DNA of 64,000 bases from Akkermansia sp. (GCA_017472085.1 JAFUQZ010000084.1:424-64423); one strand, 5' to 3'. Shown: positions 9,444 through 64,000, counted from the first letter of the stretch. Notes: generated by a model from the letters alone, not told the origin. Translations and numbers: made by a program.

Positions 9444-9584
9444 GTCGTGAAGCGGAGCGTCTCTATCGTGCAGATTCGGATTCCCGCGAAGCGGTGAAAG
9501 AATAAGCTGTCAGGCTGCGTACTTGTTAATATCTTGCCATAGGCGTTGCCTTGTGGTAGAACGGGATTTTATCTTGTGACCGAT

Positions 9585-10238
9585 ATGCTTAAGGCAGTCT
9601 TATTCGATATGGATGGTACGCTGGGGGATACGCTTCCGCTGTGTGTGGAGTCGTATCGCACCTGTGTGGAGGAGTTGGGGCATTCCAAGCCCTCTGCAGA
9701 GAAAGTCGTCAGCTTTTTCGGGCTGAATGACAGCGGGGTGCTGGCCGGATTGCTGGGCATGGCGCCGGATGATCCGGCGTTGCCGATAGGGCGTTTTGTG
9801 GAGGTTTATGAGCGCTTGCATCCTGCGCTGGCGCCGGCTCCCTTTCCCGGGGCGGTGGAGATGCTGCAGGCGGTGAAGGCAGCGGGCATCCGCATCGGCA
9901 TCATCAGCGGCAAGGAACATTTTACGGGCAATCCGACCATCCGTTATTTCGGGCTGGAGGAGTTTGTGGAATGGCGAGGATTCGGTCTGGCCACGCATAA
10001 CTGCAAGCACGAGCGATTGGAGCAGGTGATGCAGGAATGGAATCTGCGCCCGGAGGAACTGGTGTATGTGGGTGATGCTCCCTCGGATATTGAGCTGAGC
10101 CACCGTGTGGGAGTCCGCATCATCAATGCGGCCTGGGCCTCCACGGCGGCACAGGAGGAGGCTGCCTGTCTGGCGCTGAAGCCGGACTGGCGATTGACCC
10201 GTTTTGATGAATTACTTCCCCTGATATTGAGTTTATGA
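9585..10238 (+). CDS. HAD-family phosphatase (phosphoglycolate phosphatase-like)
   Basis: Motif I LFDMDGTLGDT, motif II IISGK, motif IV YVGDAPSD. Confidence 0.9.
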   Translation: MLKAVLFDMDGTLGDTLPLCVESYRTCVEELGHSKPSAEKVVSFFGLNDSGVLAGLLGMAPDDPALPIGRFVEVYERLHPALAPAPFPGAVEMLQAVKAAGIRIGIISGKEHFTGNPTIRYFGLEEFVEWRGFGLATHNCKHERLEQVMQEWNLRPEELVYVGDAPSDIELSHRVGVRIINAAWASTAAQEEAACLALKPDWRLTRFDELLPLILSL

Positions 10239-49053: not shown

Positions 49054-49062
49054 AGCGAAAAG

Positions 49063-49098
49063 CACCCCCGCTGAACCTTTCCGGTACAGCGGGGGTGG
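49063..49098. terminator. Hairpin between convergent pdxH and the accessory operon
   Basis: CACCCCCGCTG / CAGCGGGGGTG 11-bp perfect stem. Confidence 0.75.
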
Positions 49099-49124
49099 GG
49101 CATGAATACCAATGCCGCATTTGG

Positions 49125-49661
49125 TCAGAAATCCTGCGGAGTATCCAGCGTTTTGAGCAGCTCCTCATTTTCCTTTTCCAATTCCTTGACCCGATTTTGC
49201 ATCATGGCTGAATTTCGGGAAATGAGAGCTTCCGCTTCGTGCATTTCTGCAAACTTGATGATTTTCTCATAGTGCTGCCTGACGGCGGCATTTTTTCTTT
49301 TTTCTTCCTTCAGATTGCCGTTGACTCGCAACACGACATCCCGATTAATCAGCTTTCTGCTGCTGAATTCTCTCTTGCGGGTATCGATGATACGAATCAT
49401 CTGTGCTCTGCGGTTGTAACGCTCTCTCAATTCTTCTGCTTTTTCCCGAATACCGGGATAAGGCAGACGGTTGACGTAGTCGTTCGCAACAAGATCATTG
49501 CCGGCGGAGAGGAAATCCTCAAAGTCTTTTGATTCAATACTGGTGATGAATACATCCACATCCGGCAATGCCTTTTTTTGTGCGTCCTGATTCTGAGAAA
49601 AGAAATAACACCCGGCCGTTGGCACAAAGAGAACGAGGGTAAACAGAAACCATCCTTTCAT
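49125..49661 (-). CDS. N-terminally anchored coiled-coil protein
   Basis: Hydrophobic N-terminus, charged helical remainder; low GC. Confidence 0.75.
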   Translation of the reverse strand: MKGWFLFTLVLFVPTAGCYFFSQNQDAQKKALPDVDVFITSIESKDFEDFLSAGNDLVANDYVNRLPYPGIREKAEELRERYNRRAQMIRIIDTRKREFSSRKLINRDVVLRVNGNLKEEKRKNAAVRQHYEKIIKFAEMHEAEALISRNSAMMQNRVKELEKENEELLKTLDTPQDF

Positions 49662-49681: not shown

Positions 49682-50347
49682 TTATTTAATCGTCTGATTG
49701 AGCAGCTCCTGTTTAAGTGCCTGTTCCGTTCTGTTCAGCTCATCAAGAAGCTCTGTATCATTGAATCGCCGTCCCAGATTGGAGAATAATCTGGCGAAAT
49801 ACAGATACCCCGCCTGCGTTTCGACGTTTTTCCTGAGCTCTGCATAGCGTTTCATTGATGCTTTATGCGAGGCGATGCTCTTGCTTAATTTATCTCTTGC
49901 TTCCCGATTACGCATGCCGGCACGGGCAGATTCCTCCTCTTTGCGTAGAGTATCAAGGGAATCACTCACGCGTCCCAACTCGCAATAGTGCTCAAACAGC
50001 AGAGGCTTTTCTTTCGCCAGAATGGAAATAGGCCCCTGTGTCAGAGGATTGATTGCGACAGCATCTTCCTGTTTTTGTCTGCGAGCCTCTGCCTTCTTGT
50101 TCCCAAAAAGGAAGGGTTCACTCAGAGCCAGCAACCCTCCTGCGTTGAAAAACAGAAAGAGAGCGCCTATGGCACAGCCCATGGAGCAGCTCCTGTTGCC
50201 CTTATCCCGGTATTCCTCTTCCTCACTTCTGCCCACTTGCCCGGACATAATGTGAAAATAAATACCCCGTATAATGGCAGATAGGACGGCGCAGAGACAG
50301 AACAGTACTATTACAGCGTTCCAGAACTCATTTTCTATGAGCATCAT
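49682..50347 (-). CDS. Two-TM membrane protein with C-terminal coiled coil
   Basis: TM1 AVIVLFCLCAVLSAII, TM2 CAIGALFLFFNAGGLLAL, coiled-coil tail. Confidence 0.75.
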   Translation of the reverse strand: MMLIENEFWNAVIVLFCLCAVLSAIIRGIYFHIMSGQVGRSEEEEYRDKGNRSCSMGCAIGALFLFFNAGGLLALSEPFLFGNKKAEARRQKQEDAVAINPLTQGPISILAKEKPLLFEHYCELGRVSDSLDTLRKEEESARAGMRNREARDKLSKSIASHKASMKRYAELRKNVETQAGYLYFARLFSNLGRRFNDTELLDELNRTEQALKQELLNQTIK

Positions 50348-50367: not shown

Positions 50368-50970
50368 TCAGTCCATCATCATCAGAACATCTATCTCCGC
50401 ATTCAGCCGGTTGCAGTTGCTTTGCAGATTGGCCACATTCTGCTCGGCCTTATCCAGCACTTCCTGCATTCCGGCATCGTCCAGAGAATCCCGCATGGTT
50501 TGCATCATAGCGATGCGCTGACGCGCAAAACGAACATCCTGGTACGCGCGTTCGCGTATTTTTTTGAGCTCTTCCAGCTTCGTTTTTCGTTTTTCGATGC
50601 TGTTTTTGACGGTTTCGTGCTTGGACTCGAAAAAGACAGCCTGTTCCTCGCTGCGGAGTGCCAGGTCTTCCCTCCCTTCCTTACGCTGCGCTTCGGCCGT
50701 TTCGCGTGCGCGCCTGGCACAGACGAGGGCATCTGTCTGTGAGCCCATCAGGGCTGTCAGTTTATTGTAGGCAGAGTTATAGGCCTGGTCATAGCGGGCC
50801 AGCGCCAGCGTTCCCTGGTCCACCTGAGCCTCCATGCGGGAGACTTTGTCTCCCACAAACGAGTACCAGATAATTTTGGCATCGGATCTGTATTCCGGTG
50901 AGAGGATGATGGTGCCTGCGAACAGTACCAGGAGGGCTGCTATGCTATAGGTGATGATTTTTTTTAACAT
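50368..50970 (-). CDS. Membrane-anchored PspA/IM30-like coiled-coil protein 2
   Basis: Start MLKKIITYSIAALLVLFAG; AEAQRKEGREDLALRSEEQ matches the PspA A..A..G.EDLA motif; ends RLNAEIDVL. Confidence 0.6.
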   Translation of the reverse strand: MLKKIITYSIAALLVLFAGTIILSPEYRSDAKIIWYSFVGDKVSRMEAQVDQGTLALARYDQAYNSAYNKLTALMGSQTDALVCARRARETAEAQRKEGREDLALRSEEQAVFFESKHETVKNSIEKRKTKLEELKKIRERAYQDVRFARQRIAMMQTMRDSLDDAGMQEVLDKAEQNVANLQSNCNRLNAEIDVLMMMD

Positions 50971-50992: not shown

Positions 50993-51622
50993 TTATTCCA
51001 TATCATTGTCAAGCTGCTGCACCTGAAGCTCTGCATCCAGCCGGCTGCAGGTCTTCTTTACTTCCTCTTCCAGCTCGCGGGCGCGCTGCATGGCAAAGCC
51101 GGCATCGCCGCCGCTCAGGGCTGTCAGCTCTCCCTTGAGCATTTCGGTTTTGGCGCTGAGCGTGTCCAGCTCCACTTTCTTGCGTTTGAAGAAGAGGTCA
51201 AATTCCTTGTAGGAGGCTTCGGCCTTGGCAGAGGAATCTGCCAGTTTGGCAGCCTGTTCCTCAAACATGGCCTTTTCTGCATCCTTTGCAACAGCTGAGG
51301 CTTCCTTACCGCCTGCGCGCAGTTCTGCGGCTTTGATAGCTGCTTCTGCGGCTTTACGTTTCGCTTCGGAGTGCAGGGTCTTAAGCTGTACCAGTGATTC
51401 CCGCTTGGCCTTGTAGGCGGTTTTGTAGTGTTCCAGAGCCACGCGTGTTTTTCCCACGCGCTCCTCCATGGAGGCGATGATTTTGTCCACCGCCACAGCT
51501 CCGGTTGCTTCGATTGATTGTTTTGCTTCGGCTGTTTTTTCGGGATAGAACACGGCGAGACTCCCGAGCGTGAGGAGCAGTCCTGCTCCTCCGCCCACTG
51601 TCCATTTAATGATATTGGTCAT
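50993..51622 (-). CDS. Membrane-anchored PspA/IM30-like coiled-coil protein 1
   Basis: TM GAGLLLTLGSLAVFY; DKIIASMEERVGKTRVAL, AAELRAGGKEASA, ends RLDAELQV; same layout as its neighbour. Confidence 0.5.
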   Translation of the reverse strand: MTNIIKWTVGGGAGLLLTLGSLAVFYPEKTAEAKQSIEATGAVAVDKIIASMEERVGKTRVALEHYKTAYKAKRESLVQLKTLHSEAKRKAAEAAIKAAELRAGGKEASAVAKDAEKAMFEEQAAKLADSSAKAEASYKEFDLFFKRKKVELDTLSAKTEMLKGELTALSGGDAGFAMQRARELEEEVKKTCSRLDAELQVQQLDNDME

Positions 51623-51668: not shown

Positions 51669-54600
51669 TTATCGGTTGCTGATGTAGTTGCGGATGAAGT
51701 GTATCAGGCATTGTGCCATGATAAGGAACGGAGCAAGGATAAGTGCCAGCATCAGCATGCACGCTGCCACCGCACATCCCATGGTTTTGTTTTCCAAATC
51801 TTTGTAGAGCCGCCCGTGCTTATCCACATACACGGTATCAAAATCACCTCTGGCGCTGCATGCGGCAGCTACGAACATGCCGATGCCGAGTCCGTAGAGC
51901 AAACGGTGCATGAGGAGGAGATACCAGGGTTCCGGATTAACCGTTTTATATCGGGGCGTCAGCAGGGCCAGGTAATAGACAAAGGGTATAGCCCAGGCCA
52001 CAAAGCCAATCATGAACCCTGCCGCTATGCAAATGGAACAGATAATGATAAATTGCTTTTTCTCACACCCAAGTATACGACTCTGAGCGTTGTTTAAATC
52101 TGAACCAAAGGCATTGAGTGCATATTTTTCATCATCACTCAAATCCGATATTCCCTTGAATTTCGCCAAGGCTGCATAGCCCTTGTCGATTTCTTTCTTC
52201 AGAGAAAAGTAGCGTACTTCCACTCCGTCCATATTTTCCCTTTCCATATTGTCCCATATTTCGCGCAATTCATTAAATTCATTGCGCAAGCCTTCGACAT
52301 CAAAGACGCAGCCTTGAGGGACCTCATAATCTTCCGGCAATTCAAGTGCTTTCCAGCGGCGTTTATTTTCCCGGTACAAAATCCACCCCATGTAAGGGAT
52401 TGACAACAGCCACAGCGTGACAATAGTGATGATAATGGTCAGGATTGCATTTTCGGCAGATTCCTCGATTGATACCGGCGCAGCTGGGCGCTCCATACCG
52501 AACGTATCCCATTTGTCGCGCATACTGATAATGGTTTTTTCATATTCTTGCGAGGCTTCTCCGGTGTCGTTTTCGTAGATGTAAAATGATGCAAAATTGA
52601 CTGATGTACGGAAATCGTTGGAAAGCCAAATCCAATTACTGTAGAAATATTGATCTGTTGTGATAATATGTTTCCCGGCCGTATCCGTTGCGTGAGCATA
52701 GCAGGTTACTTTCTTTTGTTCGGATGATACGAAATAATTCTTGAATGCATCCGGCAAACGGTAGATAGATACTTTCAGGTCAACTAAATCACCGATGGAG
52801 GCGTTGAGTATTTTTTCCGGGGCGTCAATATCAGACAGATACAGTCCGAACACCCCGTCGGGCCATTTGATTTTGTTTTTGTAGTCCAGCTTTCCGTAGC
52901 CGACCTTTGCCTGTATATTTTCTGTGTAACTATAGTCGGCAAAGAATGAAAGCACTTCATGGTATTTCGGAATGATGACCTCCTTGTAGAATCGGATATA
53001 TTCCGGACTGACTTCGAGCGTTGCGCTTGCTCCTGTGAACCAGTAGCGACTGCGCTTGGCTTCCTCTGAGCTCAATAACCCAAAAGACGTCTGTTTATAC
53101 GGACTGGCCGATTTGATGATGTACTGGGTCTGCGTGTGTTCTTTTACGCCCGTAGTAAATTTTTTGAACCAATCCAAATCCTGATTGCTTTCCGGCAATT
53201 CCAGATTCAGCCAGAAGTCCTGCATGTCCTGAGGAATTCCGACGTATTCGACACCATCAGATGCTGCAGGCTGTTCTATCTCAAGGTTTTCGTATACGAC
53301 AGGAGATGCTTCCTCAACGACTCGCGGTTTATTTGTTTCGATGCTAAATTGCGTTTTGTCCGGCGTGATACCTTCTTCCAGACAGATATCATCAAAGGAA
53401 AGATCTTTTGCATAAGTTTTCAGTATCCAGTACGGTTGGCAGACGAAGGAACTGTTGCATGAGGCCACGCTGTTTCCCGCATTATCGTACAGTCGGGCTG
53501 TTATGTTCTCCTTTGTACCTTCGGTTGAGGTATAGTATTCCGAGAAAACTTCCGGTAAATAATAGACCGTCATCTTCAGGTTGACCGTGGCACCGTCCTT
53601 TCTGCTGAACAGGGATTCCGGTTCATCTGCGGTCAGGAAGTAAATCCAGGAGCCTCTGTTTTTGAAATCTTTGGGTCTGTTGTATCTGAGGCTGTATTCA
53701 GATTGCCTGAGGCTAATCGTTCCTTTGATGCGATGGACGGCGACCTCCGTGCTCAGGGCTTTCAGGAAGGCTCCGTATTTGGGAACAATGACCTCATGAT
53801 AAAAACGGACAGAATCTGAACTGACACGCACATGCGCCGTGGCTCCCGTATACCAGTTATTGCCTTTTTGGGCCTGGTCGGCAGAGAGCTTTTCAAAGGG
53901 AACAGGCCGATATTGCTGCCCGGGAACGACAGTAAGTTGAGGTGTCAGATTCTGCGCGATAGCTTTGACCGTATTGTGAAAGCCCGTGGTATCCGTCTTA
54001 TTCTCCAGCGGTTTCAGGTTGTACCAGAACTGCCGCATGGCCTTCGGAATTCCGGGGTATTTGTCTGCGTACGGATTTTCATCGCCCTTATCTGAGGCCT
54101 GAGTAACAGTCTCGGGGGCAGCATCCCCGGCATCATCACTCAGCAATTCTTCAATTGCTCGTTCGTTTGCATTTTCTTTTTCGATGTCTTTGGCAAATTC
54201 CGCGTCCTTGAATCGGAATGCCTTCAATTCTTCATCCCAGGTCACATATTTCTGAACACCGGGGATGGCACTCTTCTGAACGGCTGAGTTGTAATCAACA
54301 TTTTTCTGCAGCAGCAGATTTTGCACGGAGACGAGGACGCAGTCTCTCCAGCCGCTGTCGATGGAGCTTTCGAGCTGCTTCGAATGGTTACCGAGCTTCA
54401 GGAGCAGGTCTGCCGTGGCGATGGCCTTGGAGACGTCTTCGATATATGCCTCTGCCGTCCCTTGATTGGGGTTGGCATCTTTGCTGTGCTCCTGCTGAAT
54501 GCGGAGAAGGGTGGCTGCTGATGAGCCGAATACGAGCTTGCCGTTGTCGTGACGCACCTGCACGCTATCCTTGCCTGTGTTAATGATAGGGGCCTGCGTG

Positions 54601-54815
54601 ATGGCCTTGCCGTTCTCCGGGGTGATGATTCCATTTGTCACCAGAACGTTGATGATGCGTTCCCGGCATGCTGCCAGCATGTTGTCATCTTTCTGTTGGT
54701 TCTGTCCCGGCATGGGGGGTGCCTCGCCGGTATTCTGTGTCGGTGTCGCCGTAATCGGCAGCACCATTGCCGGCAACAGCAGCAGCCATTGCAAATTGTG
54801 TAGTGTGTGTTTCAT
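51669..54815 (-). CDS. Large exported protein with an internally duplicated ~210-aa domain and a multi-TM C-terminal region
   Basis: Signal peptide; repeats start YPGIPKAMRQFWYNL (54059) and YVGIPQDMQDFWLNL (53246); TM segments from ~52450 to the C-terminus. Confidence 0.85.
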   Translation of the reverse strand: MKHTLHNLQWLLLLPAMVLPITATPTQNTGEAPPMPGQNQQKDDNMLAACRERIINVLVTNGIITPENGKAITQAPIINTGKDSVQVRHDNGKLVFGSSAATLLRIQQEHSKDANPNQGTAEAYIEDVSKAIATADLLLKLGNHSKQLESSIDSGWRDCVLVSVQNLLLQKNVDYNSAVQKSAIPGVQKYVTWDEELKAFRFKDAEFAKDIEKENANERAIEELLSDDAGDAAPETVTQASDKGDENPYADKYPGIPKAMRQFWYNLKPLENKTDTTGFHNTVKAIAQNLTPQLTVVPGQQYRPVPFEKLSADQAQKGNNWYTGATAHVRVSSDSVRFYHEVIVPKYGAFLKALSTEVAVHRIKGTISLRQSEYSLRYNRPKDFKNRGSWIYFLTADEPESLFSRKDGATVNLKMTVYYLPEVFSEYYTSTEGTKENITARLYDNAGNSVASCNSSFVCQPYWILKTYAKDLSFDDICLEEGITPDKTQFSIETNKPRVVEEASPVVYENLEIEQPAASDGVEYVGIPQDMQDFWLNLELPESNQDLDWFKKFTTGVKEHTQTQYIIKSASPYKQTSFGLLSSEEAKRSRYWFTGASATLEVSPEYIRFYKEVIIPKYHEVLSFFADYSYTENIQAKVGYGKLDYKNKIKWPDGVFGLYLSDIDAPEKILNASIGDLVDLKVSIYRLPDAFKNYFVSSEQKKVTCYAHATDTAGKHIITTDQYFYSNWIWLSNDFRTSVNFASFYIYENDTGEASQEYEKTIISMRDKWDTFGMERPAAPVSIEESAENAILTIIITIVTLWLLSIPYMGWILYRENKRRWKALELPEDYEVPQGCVFDVEGLRNEFNELREIWDNMERENMDGVEVRYFSLKKEIDKGYAALAKFKGISDLSDDEKYALNAFGSDLNNAQSRILGCEKKQFIIICSICIAAGFMIGFVAWAIPFVYYLALLTPRYKTVNPEPWYLLLMHRLLYGLGIGMFVAAACSARGDFDTVYVDKHGRLYKDLENKTMGCAVAACMLMLALILAPFLIMAQCLIHFIRNYISNR

Positions 54816-54912: not shown

Positions 54913-56448
54913 TTAACGATGCATCAGTATGAGGGCTGCGTAAGATAAGTACAGACGCTGTATGCCGCCCATTTCGGAGTGCGAATCAAAATGATTTCTC
55001 AGTTTTTCGGAACCAAACCACATGGGGGCATTATACCCTTGCAACGCATGTTCACCACTCGCTTTAAGTAAGTCGTGAGTGTTCTTCATCACCTTGACGC
55101 TTTCTCTATCATACAGAAGCCATCCGCATCCCTCCCCGTATGCGTCGAAAATGCACAGAATGTTGGAGGCCAGTTGCTCCAGTATCAGCATTTGTTGGTT
55201 CAGCAAATCTGCATATTTGTCTGCACTGGCTTTATCCACGATCAGTTTGGTTATTCGGTGGTATTCCGTCACCCATTCATCCAGCAGTCTGATGGATTCC
55301 GGAAGTACATATTTGAGCAGGGCTTCCAGTTCTTCATGGCAAACGCTGTCCCCTTCTTTCCATACTTTGGCATTATCCTGCAGGGCATAGTATTGCAGAT
55401 ACGCATTTCGCGCAGCTGCAAATTTGGCTTGGCGTATGGACTCTGCCCCTTCTTCTGCGGAGAGTGTTTTTTCAAAGCCCAGTTGTTCCACCAGCTTCTC
55501 ATCAACATTTGCGTTCGGTTTATAGCTTTTGATGACGGCGGCCAGGGTCTTGTCAATGGCGTATTTGGCGTTGATATAGACTTTCTGCTTGTGTTCCAGG
55601 GTTGATTGTGCCAGAGTTGTGCGGATGTGTTGATTTGTCTGGTCTATTGTTTCCTTTACTTTGTGGTGTTCCGTGCTTTTCTTCTCCACGGCTTCCGCGA
55701 CAGCATCTAGGGCCAGCATCCAAATCTGTATGCGCTGATTTTCGTAGCGCAGCATGGCAAACAGTCCCTTATTGTCGTCCAGTCCTGCTCCTTCTTCCGG
55801 ATAGTGTGCCACAATATCCTCCACATAGCGCTTGTACGCCGGTTCTGCGGTGGCCTTTTGCTTGAGGAAGTCATGGAACTTCTGCTCACGGGACAGAAGC
55901 CGGCGGTCAACGACATGCAGAGCATACAGACACAACAGCGTTTCAGGGTTACTGCGCTCCTGCCTGTCGAACAAATGACTGGCATTCCGGGAACGACCGT
56001 AGTACCAGTATTCCTTGATTCCATCATACGTCGCATTTGCCCGGGCTTCTCCGCTCACCAGTGCGGCTTCTTCCACCAGTTTGCGTGCGCCTGCCTCCAC
56101 GTCTGCATCGCGTGCGGGGCGCTCCAACAAGGCCGCCACTGCGGTCTTGTTCACCTTCACTCGCGCCGGTTCATTCCCATCATAATACATGTATTTCCAT
56201 GTTGTTTCGCCGTGGATTTTTCGTTTGTTGAACTCTTCTTCCTCCAGATAGCTGAACTTTGCCTGCTGTTGTACCTGTTCTGCTGCCACCGCAGGGAATC
56301 CTATTTTGCCGAATTCCTCTGCAATAATCTTTGCCACTCCTGCCAGTGTCTTTCTCAGCAGGCTGTCCATTTCTGCCTCGCTTGGCGCCGCCGTGGCACT
56401 CGCCAACAGGCATGCTCCGGCTATCATGCTTAAAATAATCCGTTTCAT
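54913..56448 (-). CDS. Secreted alpha-helical hypothetical protein
   Basis: Signal peptide MKRIILSMIAGACLLASATA; 511-aa ORF; no motif recognised. Confidence 0.8.
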   Translation of the reverse strand: MKRIILSMIAGACLLASATAAPSEAEMDSLLRKTLAGVAKIIAEEFGKIGFPAVAAEQVQQQAKFSYLEEEEFNKRKIHGETTWKYMYYDGNEPARVKVNKTAVAALLERPARDADVEAGARKLVEEAALVSGEARANATYDGIKEYWYYGRSRNASHLFDRQERSNPETLLCLYALHVVDRRLLSREQKFHDFLKQKATAEPAYKRYVEDIVAHYPEEGAGLDDNKGLFAMLRYENQRIQIWMLALDAVAEAVEKKSTEHHKVKETIDQTNQHIRTTLAQSTLEHKQKVYINAKYAIDKTLAAVIKSYKPNANVDEKLVEQLGFEKTLSAEEGAESIRQAKFAAARNAYLQYYALQDNAKVWKEGDSVCHEELEALLKYVLPESIRLLDEWVTEYHRITKLIVDKASADKYADLLNQQMLILEQLASNILCIFDAYGEGCGWLLYDRESVKVMKNTHDLLKASGEHALQGYNAPMWFGSEKLRNHFDSHSEMGGIQRLYLSYAALILMHR

Positions 56449-56462
56449 ATCATCAGATGCTC

Positions 56463-57599
56463 TTAGTTTTCCTCCTCGCCCGTCTTGCCATAACGCATTT
56501 GTGTGTTAAATGCAACGAGCTTCAATAATGTGCTGACTGCTATTTTTGCGGCTTTGGCCCCTTCGGTGTTCTTAACACTGCACTCGGGTTCGATCCACTT
56601 ATTATTTTCCCACACTCCACCTGTTTTTTCTTGTTTATCGGGTGCGCTTAATCCATCACGAACATGCTTAGTTGCATCTTCCCAATTAGTAAATAAAATA
56701 TCTGCACTTTGCGCGTAGATAAACCAAGCTAACGCATAATCAAGTTGATTTTTTATTGGATATTTGAATCCCAAAAGGTATTCAATGGTATCTAGTTTTT
56801 CGTATGTGTAGGTAACTTTGTTGTCTTTTACTTCGGTAAACAACAACAAAGATAAAGCCATTTCCGGGGGGCACTCTTTCGCAATATAGTCTACAAAATT
56901 GCTTTTATTGTCAGTTTTTTTGTGTCGCTGAAGTTCGTACAGGTACTGTACATAGACAGCATACGATTCTGTGGAAACAAACCTAAGCCGATAGCGAAGT
57001 GTAAATAAATCGGGGGGGTATCCTCCTTCCTCCGGTTTTTTTTCATATCGGACGTCATCAATCGTTGGCTGTTCATACGAAAATATAGCATGCCCCATTT
57101 CATGAGCTATGCAGATATCAGCATCACCGGGAAGTCCCGGCTTGAAAGAGAAATTTTTGTCTTTTGTTTCAGGTGTATCCGTTTCAGCCATAACGGCGAT
57201 ATAATCTCTGAATGTATATCCGTACTTTTTAGCATCCTGAGCAGAATATCTACCGTGTGCGGCTCTTACTAAACAGTAATCATTTGGTTCCGTGAAAAAA
57301 AGCGATACATTATCCGTTATGTCAATTTTGCCATCTGTTGAGATTCCCAGAATTCGGGAATCTGTCATTACTGCCTCGTTTGAAAAAAATGGAATTACTT
57401 TTTCCTCTGCCAGTTTTTTTAATTCAGCATCATAAGCTTTATTATGTCTATAACGCCCGGCTACAATTTCACTACTAAATGGGTAGTCGATTGTAAAACC
57501 CTTAAAATACCAGTGGTCATTGTTGTAAGCCTCATTTGCTGATATCTCCTGGGAATGGAGAATTAAACCGAGAGAGAAAAGGAATAAAAGATGTTTCAT
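56463..57599 (-). CDS. Secreted putative zinc metallopeptidase (HExxH), strongly AT-rich
   Basis: Signal peptide; ICIAHEMGHAIF at 57090-57104 and downstream TESYA. Confidence 0.65.
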   Translation of the reverse strand: MKHLLFLFSLGLILHSQEISANEAYNNDHWYFKGFTIDYPFSSEIVAGRYRHNKAYDAELKKLAEEKVIPFFSNEAVMTDSRILGISTDGKIDITDNVSLFFTEPNDYCLVRAAHGRYSAQDAKKYGYTFRDYIAVMAETDTPETKDKNFSFKPGLPGDADICIAHEMGHAIFSYEQPTIDDVRYEKKPEEGGYPPDLFTLRYRLRFVSTESYAVYVQYLYELQRHKKTDNKSNFVDYIAKECPPEMALSLLLFTEVKDNKVTYTYEKLDTIEYLLGFKYPIKNQLDYALAWFIYAQSADILFTNWEDATKHVRDGLSAPDKQEKTGGVWENNKWIEPECSVKNTEGAKAAKIAVSTLLKLVAFNTQMRYGKTGEEEN

Positions 57600-57624: not shown

Positions 57625-59199
57625 TTATTTCACATCGCTCAGTTGTTTCATGAGCTGCTGAGTATCCGGGAATTTGGCTGTGGCGCGGTATTGGGAGAAG
57701 AAGTCGGCGGCGTGGCGGAGGCAGGATTGCTGGCGGGGTTCTTTGGAGGCGAGCTCGGAGAGGTGGCGGTTCAGCTCTGCATCAGCGATATCGGCGGGGA
57801 CATCTGCTAGGAGTTTGCAGCCTTTGAAGAGGTGGCTGCGGGCACCGGCGATGTTGGTGCGGAATTGCTCCAGCTTGGGTTGGATGAGAGCGCGGGCTTC
57901 ATCATCCGTATCCTCGCGCTCCAGGAGGGAGGTGAGGTCTGCCTCTGCCTTGAGGTAGTAGGAGAGGTGGGCGGCGGAGGTGCTGAGCATGGTGAGGGCG
58001 GCATCTGCCTTGAGCTGTTCGCTCTGGCGGACCAGGGCCAGGGATTGCTTGAGCTGGGCTTCCACCACGGTGCTTTGCTTGCGGATGGCGGTGAGCTTGT
58101 CTTTCATTTCCACATCGGCGGTGAGAGCGGCGGCTTCCAGCTCCTCCACGCGGCTGCGGAGGCGTGCGTTTTCCTCCTCAGCCTGCTGCGCGAGGTCTTC
58201 CAGGCAGACTTCTGTGGTGGATCCGGCGGCTTCTACCGGGGGAGGCGGGGTGCGGAGTTCCTCAAATTCCTTCCACTGGTCAGAGAAGGCCTGCATGGAC
58301 ATTTCCTTGTGGCGAATGACGGAGCCGAGCACGGGGCGGAAGCCGACCAGCTCGCTGCGGAACTCGGAGCCGTCCTCGCGGTAGGGGATGCACTCCGATC
58401 GGTCGGAGGAGTGGAGGGTGGCTTTCTCTGTGCGGAAATTGCCGCCGCAGGTGAGGATGCCGCCGGAGCGGCCGAGGCTGCTGTCGAAGTAATAGATGGG
58501 GCTTGCCAGTTCGGAGACATTGCCGAGCATATCGTAGAGCCCGACGGGGTTGGGCTTGCGACTGCCTTTGACGGGGCGGGGGGCCACGTTGCGCGAACCG
58601 GTGAAGGTGACTTCGTAGCGAGAGATGGCGTTGGCGGGGTAGGGGGTGGAGGCATCAAAGATGCCTTCATCCACATTCACGCCGCCGCGCGCCGCGAATT
58701 CCCACTCCACGGGGGAGGGAAGACGGAAGAAGAATGCGTGTGTCTTGTCGTTGCGGTAGGGGATGAGGGCGGCGGCGAATTCCTCGCTGGCGGCCATGAG
58801 TCTGTTGAGTCGGGAGAGGAAGTTCTGAGCATCGGTCACGGAGATGTTGACCATGGGAAGATTGGCCTCTTTTGCCGGGGGCATGGGTTCGCCCATGACG
58901 GCGGCGTACTGGGCGCGGGTGACTTCTGTCTCGCAGAAGGGGATGTACCATTTTTTGCCGTTGAAGGCGGTGCCCGCCAGATTGACGCGGGTGACGGGTT
59001 CGTTGGTGTAATCTCCGCTGCCGGCATTGAAGCTGCGGTAGGCAAAGATGTTCGGGTTATCGGAAATTTCCACGGGTATGAACACCATTTTCTGCCCCTG
59101 CGGCAGCAGGAGTTCCATGGGGGGCGCGGCAGGGGTGCCGTCCTGAGCAGTGGCGAGACTGGCAATGAGAGAAATAGCAAGGATGGAGGATTTGGTCAT
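57625..59199 (-). CDS. FGE-sulfatase (SUMF1) domain protein with C-terminal coiled coil, TagR-like
   Basis: Start MTKSSILAISLIASLATA; ETEVTRAQY, FRLPSPVEWEFAARGG, NPVGLYDMLGNVSE, GGNF, GFR. Confidence 0.88.
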   Translation of the reverse strand: MTKSSILAISLIASLATAQDGTPAAPPMELLLPQGQKMVFIPVEISDNPNIFAYRSFNAGSGDYTNEPVTRVNLAGTAFNGKKWYIPFCETEVTRAQYAAVMGEPMPPAKEANLPMVNISVTDAQNFLSRLNRLMAASEEFAAALIPYRNDKTHAFFFRLPSPVEWEFAARGGVNVDEGIFDASTPYPANAISRYEVTFTGSRNVAPRPVKGSRKPNPVGLYDMLGNVSELASPIYYFDSSLGRSGGILTCGGNFRTEKATLHSSDRSECIPYREDGSEFRSELVGFRPVLGSVIRHKEMSMQAFSDQWKEFEELRTPPPPVEAAGSTTEVCLEDLAQQAEEENARLRSRVEELEAAALTADVEMKDKLTAIRKQSTVVEAQLKQSLALVRQSEQLKADAALTMLSTSAAHLSYYLKAEADLTSLLEREDTDDEARALIQPKLEQFRTNIAGARSHLFKGCKLLADVPADIADAELNRHLSELASKEPRQQSCLRHAADFFSQYRATAKFPDTQQLMKQLSDVK

Positions 59200-59221
59200 G
59201 GTTAGTGAAGCGTGGGTGAAA

Positions 59222-60979
59222 TTACATTTCGCGGATGGCGGTGGAGGGCTGTGTGCGAAGGACGTTGACGGCGGCACAGACAGCCGCCAGCAGTCCGATG
59301 GCGATACCGCAGCCCAGCACAAGGGCATGATGGGCGGGGGAGAGGAAACAGAGGTTCTCCCCTGTCTCAATTTCTGCAGCAAACAGCACGCTGATGGCGT
59401 GAGCCATGCCGTGGAAGAGGAAGAAGCTCAGCCCGATGGAGAGGAGAGTCAGGAGAAGGGATTCGCAGATGGGAAAGCAGGTGAGGGTGGCGCGGGAGAA
59501 TCCGAGGGTGGCCAGGATGGCGTAGTCGCGTCGGCGCTTGAGAACTCCGTTGAAAAGATTGAGAGCAAGGGAGATGGCTGCTCCTGTCACACAGATGACG
59601 GCCAGTAGTGTGAAGAGGATTTCCAGCTGGGCGTTGAGCTCCTGCACGCGCCGGATGCCGGCAATGTTGCCCTCTGCGTGGTAGCCGCGGGCGGTGATGT
59701 GTTGCACCAGCGGCTCTACATCATCCAGCCCACGTGCGTAGAGCCGGATGCGGGAGAAGGCGCGGTGCGGCTGTGTCAGCCCGCCCGCTTCCTCGCTCCA
59801 GAAAAGCCCGCGCTGACAGATGCCGTGCAGCACGCCCAGCACGGAGGCGGACGCCGTCCATTCCCCCGGTGGCAGGGAGGTATCCGCCACCGCTTCCACT
59901 CGCATACTGCCTTTCCCTCCGGCCAGCAGCAGAGTGTGGAAGCCGGCATCAGCGGGATTGCCGCAGCGGATTTGCAGCGCCGGGGCGGCGGCGCGGAGGT
60001 TGAGCGGTTCGGGGATGCAGTGAATCGTGAATGTTTCAGTTTTATCGCTTGTTTGCCGGGTGGCGGAGACGGGCGGATTCCAGAGTCGGAATTCTGCCCG
60101 GTTCTGCTTGGCTAACTGGTAGGCCCGGCGTAATTTGTCGACAGCTTTGTGCTGTGCGGAGTTGAAGAAGAGGATTGCTTCCTGAGATGCCATACCGCGG
60201 CGGATTTCGTCCTCTGTGGCGGGACGCTGTTCCGAAAAGGGGCAGGCTCGATCCCAGACGTAATCCGGCGTACTGTCTTTCAGCCCCGGTTTGTTGAGCC
60301 ACATGCCGTGGTAGACCGGGGCGGGGGGCGTGAGCCCCTGCGCACCCTCTGCAGAGAGTGATTGCCGAGCCCCCTCGGCATATTCTTCCACAGCGATGAC
60401 GAGTGAGAGCGGCACAAATACCTGTGCGCCGACACCGCTGCTGTCCGGCAGGATACCGACTACCCTGCAAGGGACTTCGGTGTACTGTGCCCTGCCGCCT
60501 TCCATGCGTCCGCGTCGCAGCCGTATCTCGCCACCCACCTCCGGAGAGAGCTTTTCTGCGATGGCAGAGCCGAGGACAATTTCCCCGGCACGGGGAACGG
60601 GGAGAGAATGCCGCGCCAGCAGGGGGTCGCCCGCACCGGTGGGGATGAGATTGACCTCCTCACTGCCGCTGTCTGTGACCAGATGGGCAGAGGTGGCCAG
60701 AATGCGTGTGGCCGGGATGCAGAATCCCACCCCGGGCAGCGCGCGGAGGCTCTCCACCTCCTGTGAACTGATATGGGTGGAAATGGGCATGCGGATTTCC
60801 AGATTGGCGGGGTCTGCCGCCAGACGCTGCCGCAGGGTCTGCACCGTGCCTTCCTTCAGCCCCAGTATCATCAGCACCGGTACCAGGGCGGCGGCCATGG
60901 CAATGCAGAGGCAGGCAGCGGCGAGCCATTCATGCCGCAGCTGTTGCCAGACAAGTTTCAGTACCAGACAGAGGTTCAT
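59222..60979 (-). CDS. ABC transporter permease, FtsX/MacB-like, TagS-like
   Basis: N-terminal TM, RLAADPANLEI, large periplasmic domain, RIRLYARGLDDV, three C-terminal TM, KRRRDYAILATLG. Confidence 0.88.
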   Translation of the reverse strand: MNLCLVLKLVWQQLRHEWLAAACLCIAMAAALVPVLMILGLKEGTVQTLRQRLAADPANLEIRMPISTHISSQEVESLRALPGVGFCIPATRILATSAHLVTDSGSEEVNLIPTGAGDPLLARHSLPVPRAGEIVLGSAIAEKLSPEVGGEIRLRRGRMEGGRAQYTEVPCRVVGILPDSSGVGAQVFVPLSLVIAVEEYAEGARQSLSAEGAQGLTPPAPVYHGMWLNKPGLKDSTPDYVWDRACPFSEQRPATEDEIRRGMASQEAILFFNSAQHKAVDKLRRAYQLAKQNRAEFRLWNPPVSATRQTSDKTETFTIHCIPEPLNLRAAAPALQIRCGNPADAGFHTLLLAGGKGSMRVEAVADTSLPPGEWTASASVLGVLHGICQRGLFWSEEAGGLTQPHRAFSRIRLYARGLDDVEPLVQHITARGYHAEGNIAGIRRVQELNAQLEILFTLLAVICVTGAAISLALNLFNGVLKRRRDYAILATLGFSRATLTCFPICESLLLTLLSIGLSFFLFHGMAHAISVLFAAEIETGENLCFLSPAHHALVLGCGIAIGLLAAVCAAVNVLRTQPSTAIREM

Positions 60980-61716
60980 ATAGTGTTGCTTTCGCGGCGG
61001 AGGGTGGAGGTGACACAGGTGCCTTCCACCCTGATATCAAATCCGTATACCCGGTCTGCGGCGGTGCGGAACAGCTCTGCATCATGCGTGACGATGAGAA
61101 CCGCCACGTTGCGCTCACGCGCGGTTTCCAGCAGCAGTTCTCTGACAATGCGGGCAGATTCCGGATCGAGCGCCCCGGTCGGTTCATCTGCCAGCACGAT
61201 GCGGGGCCCCGCCGCCAGAGCCCGGGCGATGGCGACACGCTGCCGCTGTCCGGTACTCAGCTGCGCCGGGTACTGGCGGCTCAGCCCGGCGATTTCCAGT
61301 CTCTCCATCAGCTTGCCGATGCCGTCCCGGGGGCTGCCGCAGAGCTGCCGGGGCAGGGCGACGTTATCCTCTACGCTCAGGAAAGGGAGAAGACCTCCGG
61401 TCTGCAGGATGTAGCCCAGCTGTGTGCGGCGCAGGTGCTCTGCTTCGTGCGGGGTGGCACGCAGGGCATCAAACCATTGACACGGGTTGCGGCGGATGCG
61501 GTAGGACTGTGCCGAATCCGGGCGGGATATCATGCCCAGCATGTCCAGCAGGGTGGATTTTCCGCATCCGCTGCGACCGATGATGATGTTGACGCTGCCG
61601 GCATCCACATTCAGTTCCGGTACCAACAGCCGGAAGCTCCGCTCGCTCCCCGCATAAAAGCGGGAGAGCTCGCGGGCTGTGAGAACGGTGGAGGCTGACA
61701 GCGCTTCGTAGCTCAT
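60976..61716 (-). CDS. ABC transporter ATP-binding protein, LolD/MacB-like, TagT-like
   Basis: GRSGCGKST, LSTGQRQRVAIARAL, LADEPTGALD, VTHD. Confidence 0.95.
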   Translation of the reverse strand: MSYEALSASTVLTARELSRFYAGSERSFRLLVPELNVDAGSVNIIIGRSGCGKSTLLDMLGMISRPDSAQSYRIRRNPCQWFDALRATPHEAEHLRRTQLGYILQTGGLLPFLSVEDNVALPRQLCGSPRDGIGKLMERLEIAGLSRQYPAQLSTGQRQRVAIARALAAGPRIVLADEPTGALDPESARIVRELLLETARERNVAVLIVTHDAELFRTAADRVYGFDIRVEGTCVTSTLRRESNTI

Positions 61717-61725
61717 GTTGGTGTA

Positions 61726-64000
61726 TCAGGGCAGTTGCTCCAGCGGAATGGGGGTGAGCATCTGGCTCTCATCGCAGGATGCATCCGGCTTCATCCACAG
61801 GTCGAGGTTATCATATACGGCCTTGTAGAATTTGAGCTTGTTCTGCGCATTGCTGATGAATTCATCCTGCTCATCCTGCTGCATGCTCTGCCAGTACTCG
61901 TTGGTCATGGTCAGAACCTTGCTGCGGTAGGGCAAATCCTTCAGGAAGGTAGGCACGAAGCGCGAATCCGCCAGCATGTTGATGTTATTCAGCATGTCCG
62001 CGTTCTTTTGGGTGGCCATAACCGTGCTCTGAAGTGCTGAGAAGAAGGCGGTGGAGGTTCCCTTGGCGCTCATGCCTGCTGCCACCACGTTTTCCAGGAT
62101 GGAGCGCACGGAATCCAGCTGCTGGCGAGTCAGCATCACGCAGGGTTTCACGGAATCCAGCGCAGGATCTTTCAGATCCTTGTCCAGCACCCAGCCGCTC
62201 ATCTCATTGGTGACCCCCACTTTATGTGCCTCCGAAATCCAGTGTACCCGGGCGTTTTGGAAGAGGGCTGTTGCAAAGCTCTGTCCATTGGTGGCAGGCT
62301 TGATTTCGGAGCCGCCCTGATTGGCTACCATGGTCTGGGCTACGAGCCAAGTGATAACCTCGCGGGAGAAATTCTCAAAATCGCCGGCTTTGCCCATGTT
62401 GAGGATGGCGGTGGCGCGCTTGTTTTCGCCGGTGGCAAGGGCATCAAACTGCTGGCGGGCAATGGGCAGGTGCTCCTTGTAGCGGGGAACGTTCACATAG
62501 GCGGTACCCACGGATACGCGGTGCTTGTCCGCAAGCCCTCGGATTTCATTGGTTCCCATTTCGGCAGCTGTTCCCACGGGTTTATCCTTGCGGCGGCTGA
62601 AGGGGTCTGTCTTGCCTGGCTCACGACCGGGGGCATCGCCGATGAGGATGATGGCTCGTGCCGCGCCCTCGCGCCACTTGGTCTTTTCAATGGCATCCTT
62701 CATGCCGGCCAGCACGTCTTCCGCGTAGTCCACGGAGTCAATGCGGGTTTCTTTGGCCTTCTCCAGAGTCTTGACGAATTCGGCGGCTGTCTGGAGTCCC
62801 TCGGCGGTATAGTCGTGGGTGAGATATTCAATGCCCGGGCAGGCTTTCATGTCATCCCGGTAACCCCAGAAGCCGAAGTGAATCATAGAGTCCTTGAAGT
62901 TCGGGTTGCCGGAGGTGGCTTCGGCAATCTGACGGATGGTCTTGAGCACCTGGTCTTTGATGGGACCCATGCTGCGGGATAAGTCCATGACGAAGACCAA
63001 ATCCAGGGACATGTTTTTTGCGGTCAGCGGCTCTGTGGAGGTAGCCGTGTTTTCCGTGGCTGCGGACACCTTGATGGCAGTCATATCGTATTCTGCGGCA
63101 ATTTCTGACTGCTCGTCCGAGAATTCCACAATGGGCATGAGATAGAAATTGCTCTTCATGGTGGCCCAGCCTTCCGGTTCGCATGCCACGATGCTCTTGT
63201 CAGCAACCGGCTGGTTTTTCTCGATGTTTTCGTAGGCAGGGCGCAGAGCCACTTCCCGTTCTTCCGGGGTCATCTCGGCGTAACGAAGGGCATCTTCCTT
63301 ATTGGCAAAGAAAAGAGTTCGCGCGCGGCCGTTCGGGTTGGCAAACTGAACCACCAGCTGGTGTTTCCAGGGGAGGGTGTCTTCTTCCTTCACCCAACCT
63401 TTGAGCCCCTTGCCGCCGGGAGCCTGCACCTGAATGCGTCCGGCCTCTCGAGAAATAACTTCCAGAATGGAGAAGTTCGGCAGGTAAGTTTCCGATTTTT
63501 CCTCACCAACGGAGGTATACAGCATGACTCCCGGCTTGGAGAGGATGCGTTCTGCCATGGTCAGCTCGGCGGGAGAAGACACGCTGATTTTCTTCTTAGC
63601 TTCCTGCTCGGCCTTGGCTTCCTGCTCAGCCTTGGCTTTGGCTTCCTGCTCAGCCTTGGCTTTGGCTTCCTGCTCAGCCTTGGCATTGGCTTCCTGCTCA
63701 GCCTTGGCATTGGCTTCCTGCTCAGCCTTGGCTTTGGCTTCCTGCTCAGCCTTGGCATTGGCTTCCTGCTCAGCCTTGGCATTGGCTTCCTGCTCAGCCT
63801 TGGCCTTGGCTTCCTGTTCGGCCCTGGCCTTGGCTTCCTGTTCGGCCTTGGCTTTAGCTTCCTGCTCGGCCTTGGCTTCCTGCTCGGCCTTGGCCTTGGC
63901 TTCCTGCTCGGCCTTGGCCTTGGCTTCCTGTTCGGCCCTGGCCTTGGCTTCCTGCTCGGCCTTGGCATTGGCTTCCTGCTCAGCCTTGGCTTTGGCTTCC
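61726..64000 (-). CDS. vWA-domain protein (resembling the PpkA C-terminal region) preceded by a long Ala/Glu/Lys stalk; 5' end lies beyond the window
   Basis: MIDAS DLSRS (LVFVMDLSRSMGP), ILIGDAPG, KGWV..LPWKHQLVVQF; the frame stays open through the EQEAKAKA repeat to 64000, so the track start at 63582 is internal. Confidence 0.88.
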   Translation of the reverse strand, partial: EAKAKAEQEANAKAEQEAKARAEQEAKAKAEQEAKAKAEQEAKAEQEAKAKAEQEAKARAEQEAKAKAEQEANAKAEQEANAKAEQEAKAKAEQEANAKAEQEANAKAEQEAKAKAEQEAKAKAEQEAKAEQEAKKKISVSSPAELTMAERILSKPGVMLYTSVGEEKSETYLPNFSILEVISREAGRIQVQAPGGKGLKGWVKEEDTLPWKHQLVVQFANPNGRARTLFFANKEDALRYAEMTPEEREVALRPAYENIEKNQPVADKSIVACEPEGWATMKSNFYLMPIVEFSDEQSEIAAEYDMTAIKVSAATENTATSTEPLTAKNMSLDLVFVMDLSRSMGPIKDQVLKTIRQIAEATSGNPNFKDSMIHFGFWGYRDDMKACPGIEYLTHDYTAEGLQTAAEFVKTLEKAKETRIDSVDYAEDVLAGMKDAIEKTKWREGAARAIILIGDAPGREPGKTDPFSRRKDKPVGTAAEMGTNEIRGLADKHRVSVGTAYVNVPRYKEHLPIARQQFDALATGENKRATAILNMGKAGDFENFSREVITWLVAQTMVANQGGSEIKPATNGQSFATALFQNARVHWISEAHKVGVTNEMSGWVLDKDLKDPALDSVKPCVMLTRQQLDSVRSILENVVAAGMSAKGTSTAFFSALQSTVMATQKNADMLNNINMLADSRFVPTFLKDLPYRSKVLTMTNEYWQSMQQDEQDEFISNAQNKLKFYKAVYDNLDLWMKPDASCDESQMLTPIPLEQLP
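63599..64000 (-). repeat. Coding tandem repeat, 15 x 24-bp and 2 x 18-bp units plus a partial unit, encoding (A-K/R-A-E-Q-E-A-K/N)n
   Basis: Units counted from GCTTCCTG(C/T)TC anchors at 63599, 63617, 63641 ... 63971, 63995. Confidence 0.95.

Follow-up and report, generated by a model that had tools for sequence, protein, structure and literature searches.

In the TagQRST-PpkA system of a Pseudomonas type VI secretion system (T6SS), TagQ and TagR form a damage-induced 2:2 complex that, according to prediction, binds a pair of periplasmic PpkA domains by way of its formylglycine-generating enzyme (FGE) domain (Kolesnikov et al., 2026, PMC13713981). A tagQRST/ppkA-like cassette has also been linked with srfABC (PMC3608642; bioRxiv 10.64898/2026.09.18.752743). 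The latter, a 2026 preprint, describes a cassette of a Lol-like ABC transporter, a von Willebrand factor A (vWA) protein and an FGE protein flanking srfABC, proposes a role in export for it, and finds Salmonella srfABC without it (bioRxiv 10.64898/2026.09.18.752743). Operons combining vWA with FtsZl1 (Tubulin_2, PF13809) were described by Makarova and Koonin (2010, PMC2875224). Here we analysed a stretch of 64,000 nucleotides from Akkermansia sp. (GCA_017472085.1 JAFUQZ010000084.1:424-64423, or contig C47:424-64423 of genome G000; hereafter the window), in which a cassette of this kind heads a row of 11 co-oriented minus-strand genes running from 49125 to beyond 64000. The genome comprises 2.45 Mb in 96 contigs and is 93% complete.

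Our analyses showed that this region is the larger part of a site-specific genomic island between tRNA-Ser(UGA) and pdxH; the mobile-island nature of the whole array was missed by the first-pass annotation of the window. Three modules can be distinguished. The first (M1) is a set of six genes for a Gly-zipper/coiled-coil lipoprotein, a second small lipoprotein, the vWA protein, an ABC ATPase, an FtsX/MacB permease and an FGE-fold protein. The second (M2) consists of two or three secreted proteins, one of them HExxH peptidase-like, and the third (M3+) of a multi-transmembrane protein with a variable ectodomain and four small exported coiled-coil proteins. The features in the window, all in its own coordinates, are the following.

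61726 to beyond 64000, minus strand: vWA protein gene, with the C-terminal 757 codons in the window; metal ion-dependent adhesion site (MIDAS) DLSRS...D
60976-61716, minus strand: ABC ATPase gene (LolD/MacB/FtsE type, TagT-like); ABC_tran 7e-25, motifs intact
59222-60979, minus strand: FtsX/MacB_PCD permease gene (TagS-like), 585 aa; FtsX 5e-9, MacB_PCD 1e-7
57625-59199, minus strand: gene of an FGE-sulfatase-fold protein (TagR-like), exported; PF03781 5e-20
56463-57599, minus strand: gene of a 378-aa secreted protein, low GC; AHEMGH (HExxH) motif
54913-56448, minus strand: gene of a 511-aa secreted helical protein, 23-25% identical between islands
51669-54815, minus strand: gene of a 1048-aa membrane protein with signal peptide, variable ectodomain and transmembrane windows
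50993-51622, minus strand: gene of a 209-aa protein, with a hydrophobic helix at the N-terminus and then a long helical hairpin; first of four small coiled-coil genes
50368-50970, minus strand: gene of a 200-aa paralogue of the 209-aa protein; reading frame open to 51036 (222 aa), MLKK start in agreement with homologues
49682-50347, minus strand: gene of a 221-aa protein with two transmembrane segments and a coiled coil
49125-49661, minus strand: gene of a 178-aa coiled-coil protein with a lipobox-like TAGC; final gene of the island
63610-64000 and on to the contig end, minus strand: 24-bp tandem repeat within the vWA gene, 16.5 copies in the window, encoding an AKAEQEAK-type helical stalk
49054-49124, no strand: right island junction, with a GC-rich hairpin (49063-49097) and a likeness to the tRNA-Ser 3' end (49086-49099)

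As the first-pass annotation had it, the four head genes, with an intact MIDAS in the vWA protein, are tightly coupled and are followed by seven genes for exported or membrane proteins down to 49125. The distances between vWA, ABC, FtsX and FGE genes are 9, -4 and 22 nt, the start of the permease overlapping the stop of the ATPase by 4 nt, and throughout the row they range from -4 to 25 nt, except for two wider gaps, which lie ahead of the 1048-aa gene (97 nt) and of the 209-aa gene (46 nt). A search for minus-strand terminator-like sites within the row yielded none above chance. GC content drops from about 0.62 to 0.46-0.50 over 52-58 kb. A signal peptide, lipobox-like site or transmembrane segment was present in all seven downstream proteins, none of which matched a family in Pfam, NCBIfam, PADLOC or PHROG, and the PADLOC and PHROG scans of ten island proteins returned generic ABC-ATPase matches only. 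The ABC ATPase is the sole cytoplasmic protein of the row; the island's other one is an integrase encoded on a second contig.

Contig C47 ends 129 bp past the window, within the 24-bp repeat. Elsewhere in the genome this repeat was found only at the end of the 6.4-kb contig C19 (L001), with matching orientation and frame, and it is the cause of the assembly break between the two contigs. The join is supported because a complete vWA orthologue of 807 aa from another assembly spans both pieces. Besides the vWA N-terminus (L001 5891-6376), which has a signal peptide with a conserved Cys, C19 carries, upstream of it, genes for two lipoproteins (LP1, 227 aa, lipobox LISC; LP2, 114 aa), a tyrosine integrase on the opposite strand (Phage_integrase 5.5e-13), tRNA-Ser(TGA) at 51 bp from the integrase, a sulfatase and a MATE transporter. 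A kinase domain or srfB/srfC-like genes had been predicted to lie just beyond 64000, which this gene content refutes, and no T6SS is present upstream on C19.

In the related Akkermansia genome G013 the site is empty, tRNA-Ser and pdxH being 66 bp apart; therefore, all that lies between them here is an insertion. Its size is ∼18 kb, with 2.8 kb on C19 and 15.1 kb on C47 (17.9 kb plus the repeat gap). The hairpin at the right junction is shared with the convergent pdxH, and the adjoining likeness to the tRNA-Ser 3' end amounts to 11 of 14 positions. This tRNA-like site may be a decayed attachment (att) site; an exact direct repeat of the tRNA 3' end of at least 12 bp (k=12) was not found in the window. 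The right flank belongs to the core genome and encodes PdxH, Dus, a multihaem cytochrome and Tsp. In the island-free relative closest by PdxH identity (98%; L024, G004:C4, 1295-5675), the sequence adjacent to pdxH matches a stretch ∼36 kb away on C47 (about 9500-13100 in the window), and the pdxH neighbourhood has therefore been rearranged between close relatives. Additionally, at least 15 paralogues of the island integrase (29-55% identity) are scattered over the 2.45-Mb genome (C43, C7, C23, C82, C35, C53, C92, C46, C38, C65, C36, C44, C10 and others), suggesting that it holds many integrase-borne islands.

The island recurs within the genus. Full-length vWA was detected in 4 of 151 Akkermansia species genomes, and the recurrent arrangement runs from the integrase through a pair of lipoprotein genes to vWA, ABC, FtsX and FGE, and then to two or three variable genes, a membrane protein of 800-1068 aa and four small proteins. 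tRNA-Ser(TGA) with an adjacent integrase is also the target in three further loci (L007, L026 and L028), and at least one island, L005, occupies another site. All five Akkermansia islands examined have M3+ downstream of the cassette, even at 26-50% identity, and no cassette-only island was seen among them. One complete cassette island (L109) carries an 825-aa relative of the 1048-aa protein with 28% identity. No Akkermansia island of this type came up in a literature search. Open frames of 1085-1300 aa in two other Akkermansia species genomes (G055:C49:11099-12220 and G122:C33:5984-7117) match only vWA residues 3-326 (33-35% identity); they represent a different, longer protein that has the N-terminal beta domain and the vWA domain in common.

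Comparison with the closest sister islands revealed that conservation is very uneven along the island. Identity was 91-93% for the ABC ATPase, 91% for the FGE-fold protein, 87-89% for vWA and 83-85% for FtsX; in the tail it was 92-93% for the 209-aa protein and 86-88% for the 200-aa protein (222-aa open reading frame). It was 67% for the integrase, 60-73% for the lipoproteins, 50% for the 1048-aa protein and 23-25% for the 511-aa protein, and the 378-aa protein had no counterpart. These values show the middle genes to be hypervariable. Of four island variants checked, three (our own, L007 and L005) have an (A/V)HEMGH motif encoded by the gene that directly follows FGE, and the 378-aa protein, with no detectable sequence homology to the HEMGH proteins of sister islands, is their positional analogue. 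Pfam searches of the variable genes at E up to 1 gave marginal HExxH-centred matches only. The 1048-aa protein consists of a signal peptide, a duplicated variable ectodomain, one transmembrane segment, a cytoplasmic segment of ∼110 aa and three hydrophobic, transmembrane-like windows (residues 920, 966 and 1009). Its family counts 47 clusters in an exhaustive HMMER search of 1.84 billion representatives, and the conserved part is the C-terminal membrane module only (about 790-1048), whereas the ectodomains differ greatly in size. One member, of 348 aa and nearly devoid of an ectodomain, stands directly before a 209-199-207-177 set in housekeeping surroundings with no cassette (L110).

The M1 cassette extends far beyond Akkermansia. 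A scan of 185,579 species genomes found at least 491 loci with vWA relatives, which span Pseudomonadota, Thermodesulfobacteriota, Planctomycetota and Verrucomicrobiota. In the best 80 loci, where gene order was read, the order vWA-ABC-FtsX-FGE is essentially invariant (the same in at least 60 loci examined). Akkermansia vWA aligns over its full length with cross-phylum cassette vWA at E 1e-50 to 1e-62, and the first-pass annotation was right that similar sets stand beside srfABC, in the form of an orthologous cassette in the same order. Three classes of partner were observed. First, SrfB/SrfC lie upstream of the cassette in Alpha-, Beta- and Gammaproteobacteria; the closest non-Akkermansia permease homologues, from Terasakiella and Halomonas, are found in the order SrfB-SrfC-p380-vWA-ABC-FtsX-FGE-lipoprotein-coiled coil. 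Second, in other Verrucomicrobiota the cassette adjoins a ∼1040-aa Tubulin_2 protein (FtsZl1), Zn-ribbon transmembrane proteins and paired lipoproteins. Third, in Desulfovibrionaceae, Thiotrichaceae, Scalindua and others, the 10 kb around the cassette hold neither SrfBC nor Tubulin_2, and two lipoproteins are encoded after it; a Thiomargarita cassette, for example, is without Srf genes. An S41/PDZ peptidase follows the cassette in the Desulfovibrionaceae/Desulfobacterales loci scanned with Pfam (L034 17412-21808, L037 17407-21928 and L082 17362-18387), and L034 and L037 of Desulfovibrionaceae also encode a secreted protein of ∼1057 aa, with ankyrin repeats detected only in the L034 protein. 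Near the cassettes of Verrucomicrobiota and Akkermansia, ankyrin proteins are recurrent as well. Pooling the srf-linked p380 with the ∼390-aa proteins after Desulfovibrionaceae cassettes was rejected, the Pfam content being Pro-rich/Sel1 in the former and S41/PDZ peptidase in the latter.

In a maximum-likelihood tree of 68 vWA proteins with SH-aLRT support, the Akkermansia sequences form a clade (100) inside a Verrucomicrobiota clade (99), the remaining members of which are linked to Tubulin_2; the sequences linked to SrfBC make up a clade of their own (100). The nearest non-Akkermansia relatives, with 34-35% vWA identity, are the sister clade and lie beside Tubulin_2. The phylogeny thus places M1 as a verrucomicrobial branch of the widespread cassette. 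Few exceptions to the fixed order were seen. One is a Candidatus Scalindua locus (L044 1-11782), where vWA is divergent from ABC-FtsX-FGE-lipoprotein with an extra 904-aa gene between. In a Thiomargarita metagenome contig (L010 6773-8085), the otherwise invariant vWA/ABC pair is split by genes for an AbiEii toxin and a partner of 141 aa.

The vWA protein of M1 is composed of the repeat stalk, a small N-terminal beta domain, an integrin beta-I-like vWA domain and a helical C-terminal domain. The Pfam match to PF00092 is weak (E 0.0016), with the MIDAS sequence DLSRS present and D199, S203 and D315 invariant across the family. A structure model built with 68 homologues (pLDDT 86.7, pTM 0.81) gave integrin beta-I domains as the best matches of the vWA domain (E 1e-9) and no match for the helical C-terminal domain. 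The ABC ATPase has intact Walker A, LSTGQ signature, LADE (Walker B) and THD (H-loop) motifs, and its best NCBIfam models are DevA/LolD/MacB. The permease has four transmembrane segments, with a periplasmic domain of ∼400 aa between the first and the second. Neither the vWA protein nor the permease had a useful match in PDB sequence searches. The FGE-fold protein ends in a helical/coiled-coil extension of ∼220 aa. At 2 and 7 residues past GGNF, which we take to be the positions of the SUMF1 catalytic cysteines (GGSYMCHRSYC), its family has T (41 of 62) and L (35 of 62), with the fold motifs kept; its own Cys falls at a position that is neither equivalent nor conserved (R/K in 57 of 62). Judged by this alignment, the protein is without both catalytic cysteines. 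Its PDB profile matches were a Treponema variable protein, PorK/GldK, PvdO (non-sulfatase-modifying) and also FGE; no TagR entry was recovered in the PDB searches. LP1, which contains a Gly-rich segment, aligned with the Gly-zipper_YMGG lipoproteins of the cassette (hhalign 97.8%, E 1e-12, 137 columns). The profile alignment of LP2 with the "cc" lipoprotein of the cassette covered only 26 coiled-coil columns and was rejected as evidence of their identity.

With TagQRST-PpkA, the island has in common a non-catalytic periplasmic FGE fold, an ABC ATPase, an FtsX/Lol permease and a periplasmic vWA domain, and the Gly-zipper lipoprotein LP1 is a putative counterpart of TagQ. Engagement of vWA by the FGE fold and the lipoprotein, and a requirement for ATPase activity, are likely further likenesses (PMC13713981). 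In contrast to PpkA, the Akkermansia vWA domain is exported as a free protein with a repeat stalk, the FGE-fold protein has a long coiled-coil tail, and no Ser/Thr kinase, PppA, Fha or T6SS accompanies them; kinase, PP2C and FHA domains were not matched in the island proteins. The first-pass annotation had equated the gene order with ppkA-tagT-tagS-tagR. The domain composition agrees, but relative to transcription the order is the mirror image of tagQ-R-S-T-ppkA (PA0070-PA0074). It had also reported no tss, hcp, vgrG or tagQ gene in the window; TssC/VipB had no match in this 93%-complete genome or in the island carriers G010 and G019, but a TagQ-like Gly-zipper lipoprotein, LP1, is encoded just outside the window on C19. 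Three of 31 Akkermansia species genomes did contain TssC/VipB at E about 1e-134 (G014:C9:11307-12209, G020:C82:1648-2553 and G042:C61:8688-9590); therefore, some Akkermansia have a T6SS. Among these three, G014 and G020 had no vWA match and G042 is absent from the vWA tallies.

The extended srfABC cassette has orthologous vWA, ABC, FtsX and FGE genes in identical order together with a Gly-zipper lipoprotein. In Akkermansia, by contrast, the lipoproteins are upstream rather than downstream, the permease is ∼170 aa longer, the set lies in an integrase island and SrfA/B/C are missing from the genome (no tblastn match with two SrfB and two SrfC queries). Tubulin_2 likewise had no tblastn match in this genome, and unlike the vWA/FtsZl1 operons of the sister clade, the island has an Akkermansia-specific membrane/coiled-coil unit in its place. 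With FtsEX-EnvC and the type VII ABC mechanotransmission systems of the MacB/LolCDE kind, the island shares an ABC/FtsX architecture that includes a large periplasmic domain. EnvC pairs a coiled coil with a degenerate LytM domain, as the Akkermansia protein pairs a coiled coil with a Cys-less FGE fold; the likeness is one of possible mechanism and not of membership, no EnvC, amidase or membrane fusion protein being present.

M3+ was shown to be an independent, Akkermansia-specific unit. In a word-based search the 209-aa family was confined to Akkermansia; it is present in 25 of 151 species genomes versus 4 of 151 for the cassette, and M3+ stands without the cassette in L107, L108, L110 and on contig C50 of the genome studied here. 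Other partners of the family are ankyrin/Sel1 proteins and a radical SAM/SPASM enzyme, sometimes beside an integrase. On C50 (L011, 6298-13609), a lipoprotein of 195 aa, paralogous to the 209-aa protein (37% identity), is encoded together with a radical SAM/SPASM enzyme, an amidohydrolase, a coiled-coil protein of 220 aa and a Sel1/ankyrin protein, and a GmrSD restriction enzyme follows these. The arrangement in L108, from another Akkermansia assembly, is similar and integrase-linked.

We propose by analogy that M1 may be a portable, ATP-driven sensing or switching add-on of the periplasm, which in Akkermansia would have lost its FtsZl1 partner and had M3+ attached; on present evidence, this interpretation is about evenly poised between right and wrong. 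When the envelope is perturbed, LP1 and the FGE-fold protein would bind the MIDAS vWA protein, by analogy with TagQ-TagR and PpkA. The ABC/FtsX pair would then drive or reset the switch by mechanotransmission, possibly through the coiled coil of the FGE-fold protein, in analogy with FtsEX-EnvC. The output would reach M3+ and the secreted M2 proteins through direct protein-protein interaction, in the periplasm or membrane, rather than through phosphorylation, because the row is extracytoplasmic save for the ATPase and the ∼110-aa loop of the 1048-aa protein, and encodes no kinase. Elsewhere, the partner of the cassette would be SrfABC, FtsZl1 or, for a cousin of it, PpkA/T6SS. The role of add-on is assigned to the cassette, and that of partner to M3+, because co-occurrence is asymmetric: M3+ exists alone, Salmonella srfABC lacks the cassette and, to our knowledge, T6SSs are mostly without TagQRST.

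Several points weigh against this proposal. The att repeat is no better than the 11/14 match, and the 97-nt and 46-nt gaps around the 1048-aa gene would allow separate promoters. In most genomes M3+ occurs without the cassette, and we infer the coupling of the two from conserved adjacency. Kinship with TagQRST rests on domain composition and on the published annotation of the srf-linked cassette, and the profile comparison did not equate LP2 with a cassette lipoprotein. Furthermore, TagST ATPase activity is required in P. aeruginosa, its role there being unknown (PMC13713981).

The alternative that fares best, albeit an unlikely one, is that the ABC/FtsX pair is a Lol-like extractor or exporter, which places the island's own lipoproteins and helps to place or release secreted cargo at the surface or in vesicles with no sensing involved. 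The DevA/LolD/MacB scores of the ATPase fit this role, which has been proposed for the srfABC-linked copy (bioRxiv 10.64898/2026.09.18.752743), and the cassette is always encoded with two lipoproteins (three or four in this island). However, TagST was reported to be unnecessary for TagQ/TagR localisation in P. aeruginosa (PMC13713981), neither a membrane fusion protein nor an outer membrane channel partner is encoded, and such a function leaves nothing for the conserved vWA (MIDAS) and FGE-fold proteins to do.

In the first-pass annotation, the same damage-sensing module was thought to be wired to a different output, a PspA/ESCRT-III-like membrane response plus secreted enzymes. The absence of a T6SS and the constancy of the downstream genes in five of five islands accord with the first half of that claim, but the PspA/ESCRT-III label has no sequence support. 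Repair of damaged membrane by the 209-aa and 200-aa proteins together with secreted enzymes is, in our judgement, quite improbable. The 209-aa protein is similar in length to PspA, Vipp1 and ESCRT-III proteins, its AlphaFold model (pLDDT 74) has a hydrophobic helix followed by a long helical hairpin, and Vipp1/PspA filaments head its Foldseek matches (TM-score 0.54-0.56). The genes of the 209-aa and 200-aa proteins also adjoin the cassette in every Akkermansia island. Yet these matches, at E 0.025-0.08 with none at or below 0.001, stand among many generic coiled coils that score about equally, and neither a PspA_IM30 Pfam match nor a PDB profile match was obtained for the two proteins. PspA and Vipp1 act on the cytoplasmic face, whereas the 209-aa protein begins with a hydrophobic anchor, its C50 paralogue carries a lipobox and the start of the 200-aa protein (222-aa reading frame) is MLKK and a transmembrane segment; such N-terminal anchors, which PspA, Vipp1 and ESCRT-III do not have, suggest that the coiled coils of the 209-aa and 200-aa proteins face the periplasm. 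The set is, moreover, without the cassette in ∼6 times as many species genomes (25 versus 4 of 151). The label is therefore unproven and somewhat disfavoured.

A role of the island as an envelope-level conflict system, excluding phages or contact-dependent attack with hypervariable exported proteins as specificity determinants, also has a low probability. Its mobility, integrase and rarity (4 of 151) would suit such a system, as would exposed proteins that diverge extremely fast beside conserved machinery, the GmrSD enzyme adjoining the paralogous M3 locus and the integrase linkage that M3 loci can show. No specific PADLOC or PHROG match was obtained, however, the island has no nuclease, NTPase-effector or abortive-infection component, and the orthologous cassette elsewhere lies in chromosomal srf or FtsZl1 operons and not in defence islands. 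That the row is a mere collection of independent operons on one integrative element, with the cassette and the downstream genes functionally unlinked, is likewise hardly probable: the modules differ in phyletic range and composition, the tail occurs alone, and the gaps before the 1048-aa and 209-aa genes exceed the rest, but the module order is constant in islands only 26-50% identical and at different sites, no cassette-only Akkermansia island was seen and no terminator-like signal separates the modules.

The cassette itself and its published link to TagQRST/PpkA were already known, its function being still unsolved; new here are the mobile island at tRNA-Ser, the loss of every known kind of partner and the coupling to an undescribed five-gene membrane unit of Akkermansia with hypervariable exported proteins. 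TagQRST-like cassettes are common (at least 491 loci), and a role is known in one Pseudomonas T6SS only. The Akkermansia island thus provides a compact natural experiment, a cassette without kinase, SrfABC, tubulin-like GTPase or T6SS, and since the partner unit also occurs alone in sister species, the question of what the cassette adds is testable by comparison of strains. It is conceivable, if on balance doubtful, that the cassette is a general, horizontally portable envelope-state switch for unrelated membrane machines such as the T6SS (through PpkA), SrfABC, FtsZl1 and the Akkermansia five-gene unit, and that the island is a mobile, self-contained device of envelope defence or adaptation in which the hypervariable exported proteins set recognition. 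These findings document a mobile island of hypervariable surface proteins in Akkermansia, a genus of gut commensals of medical interest.

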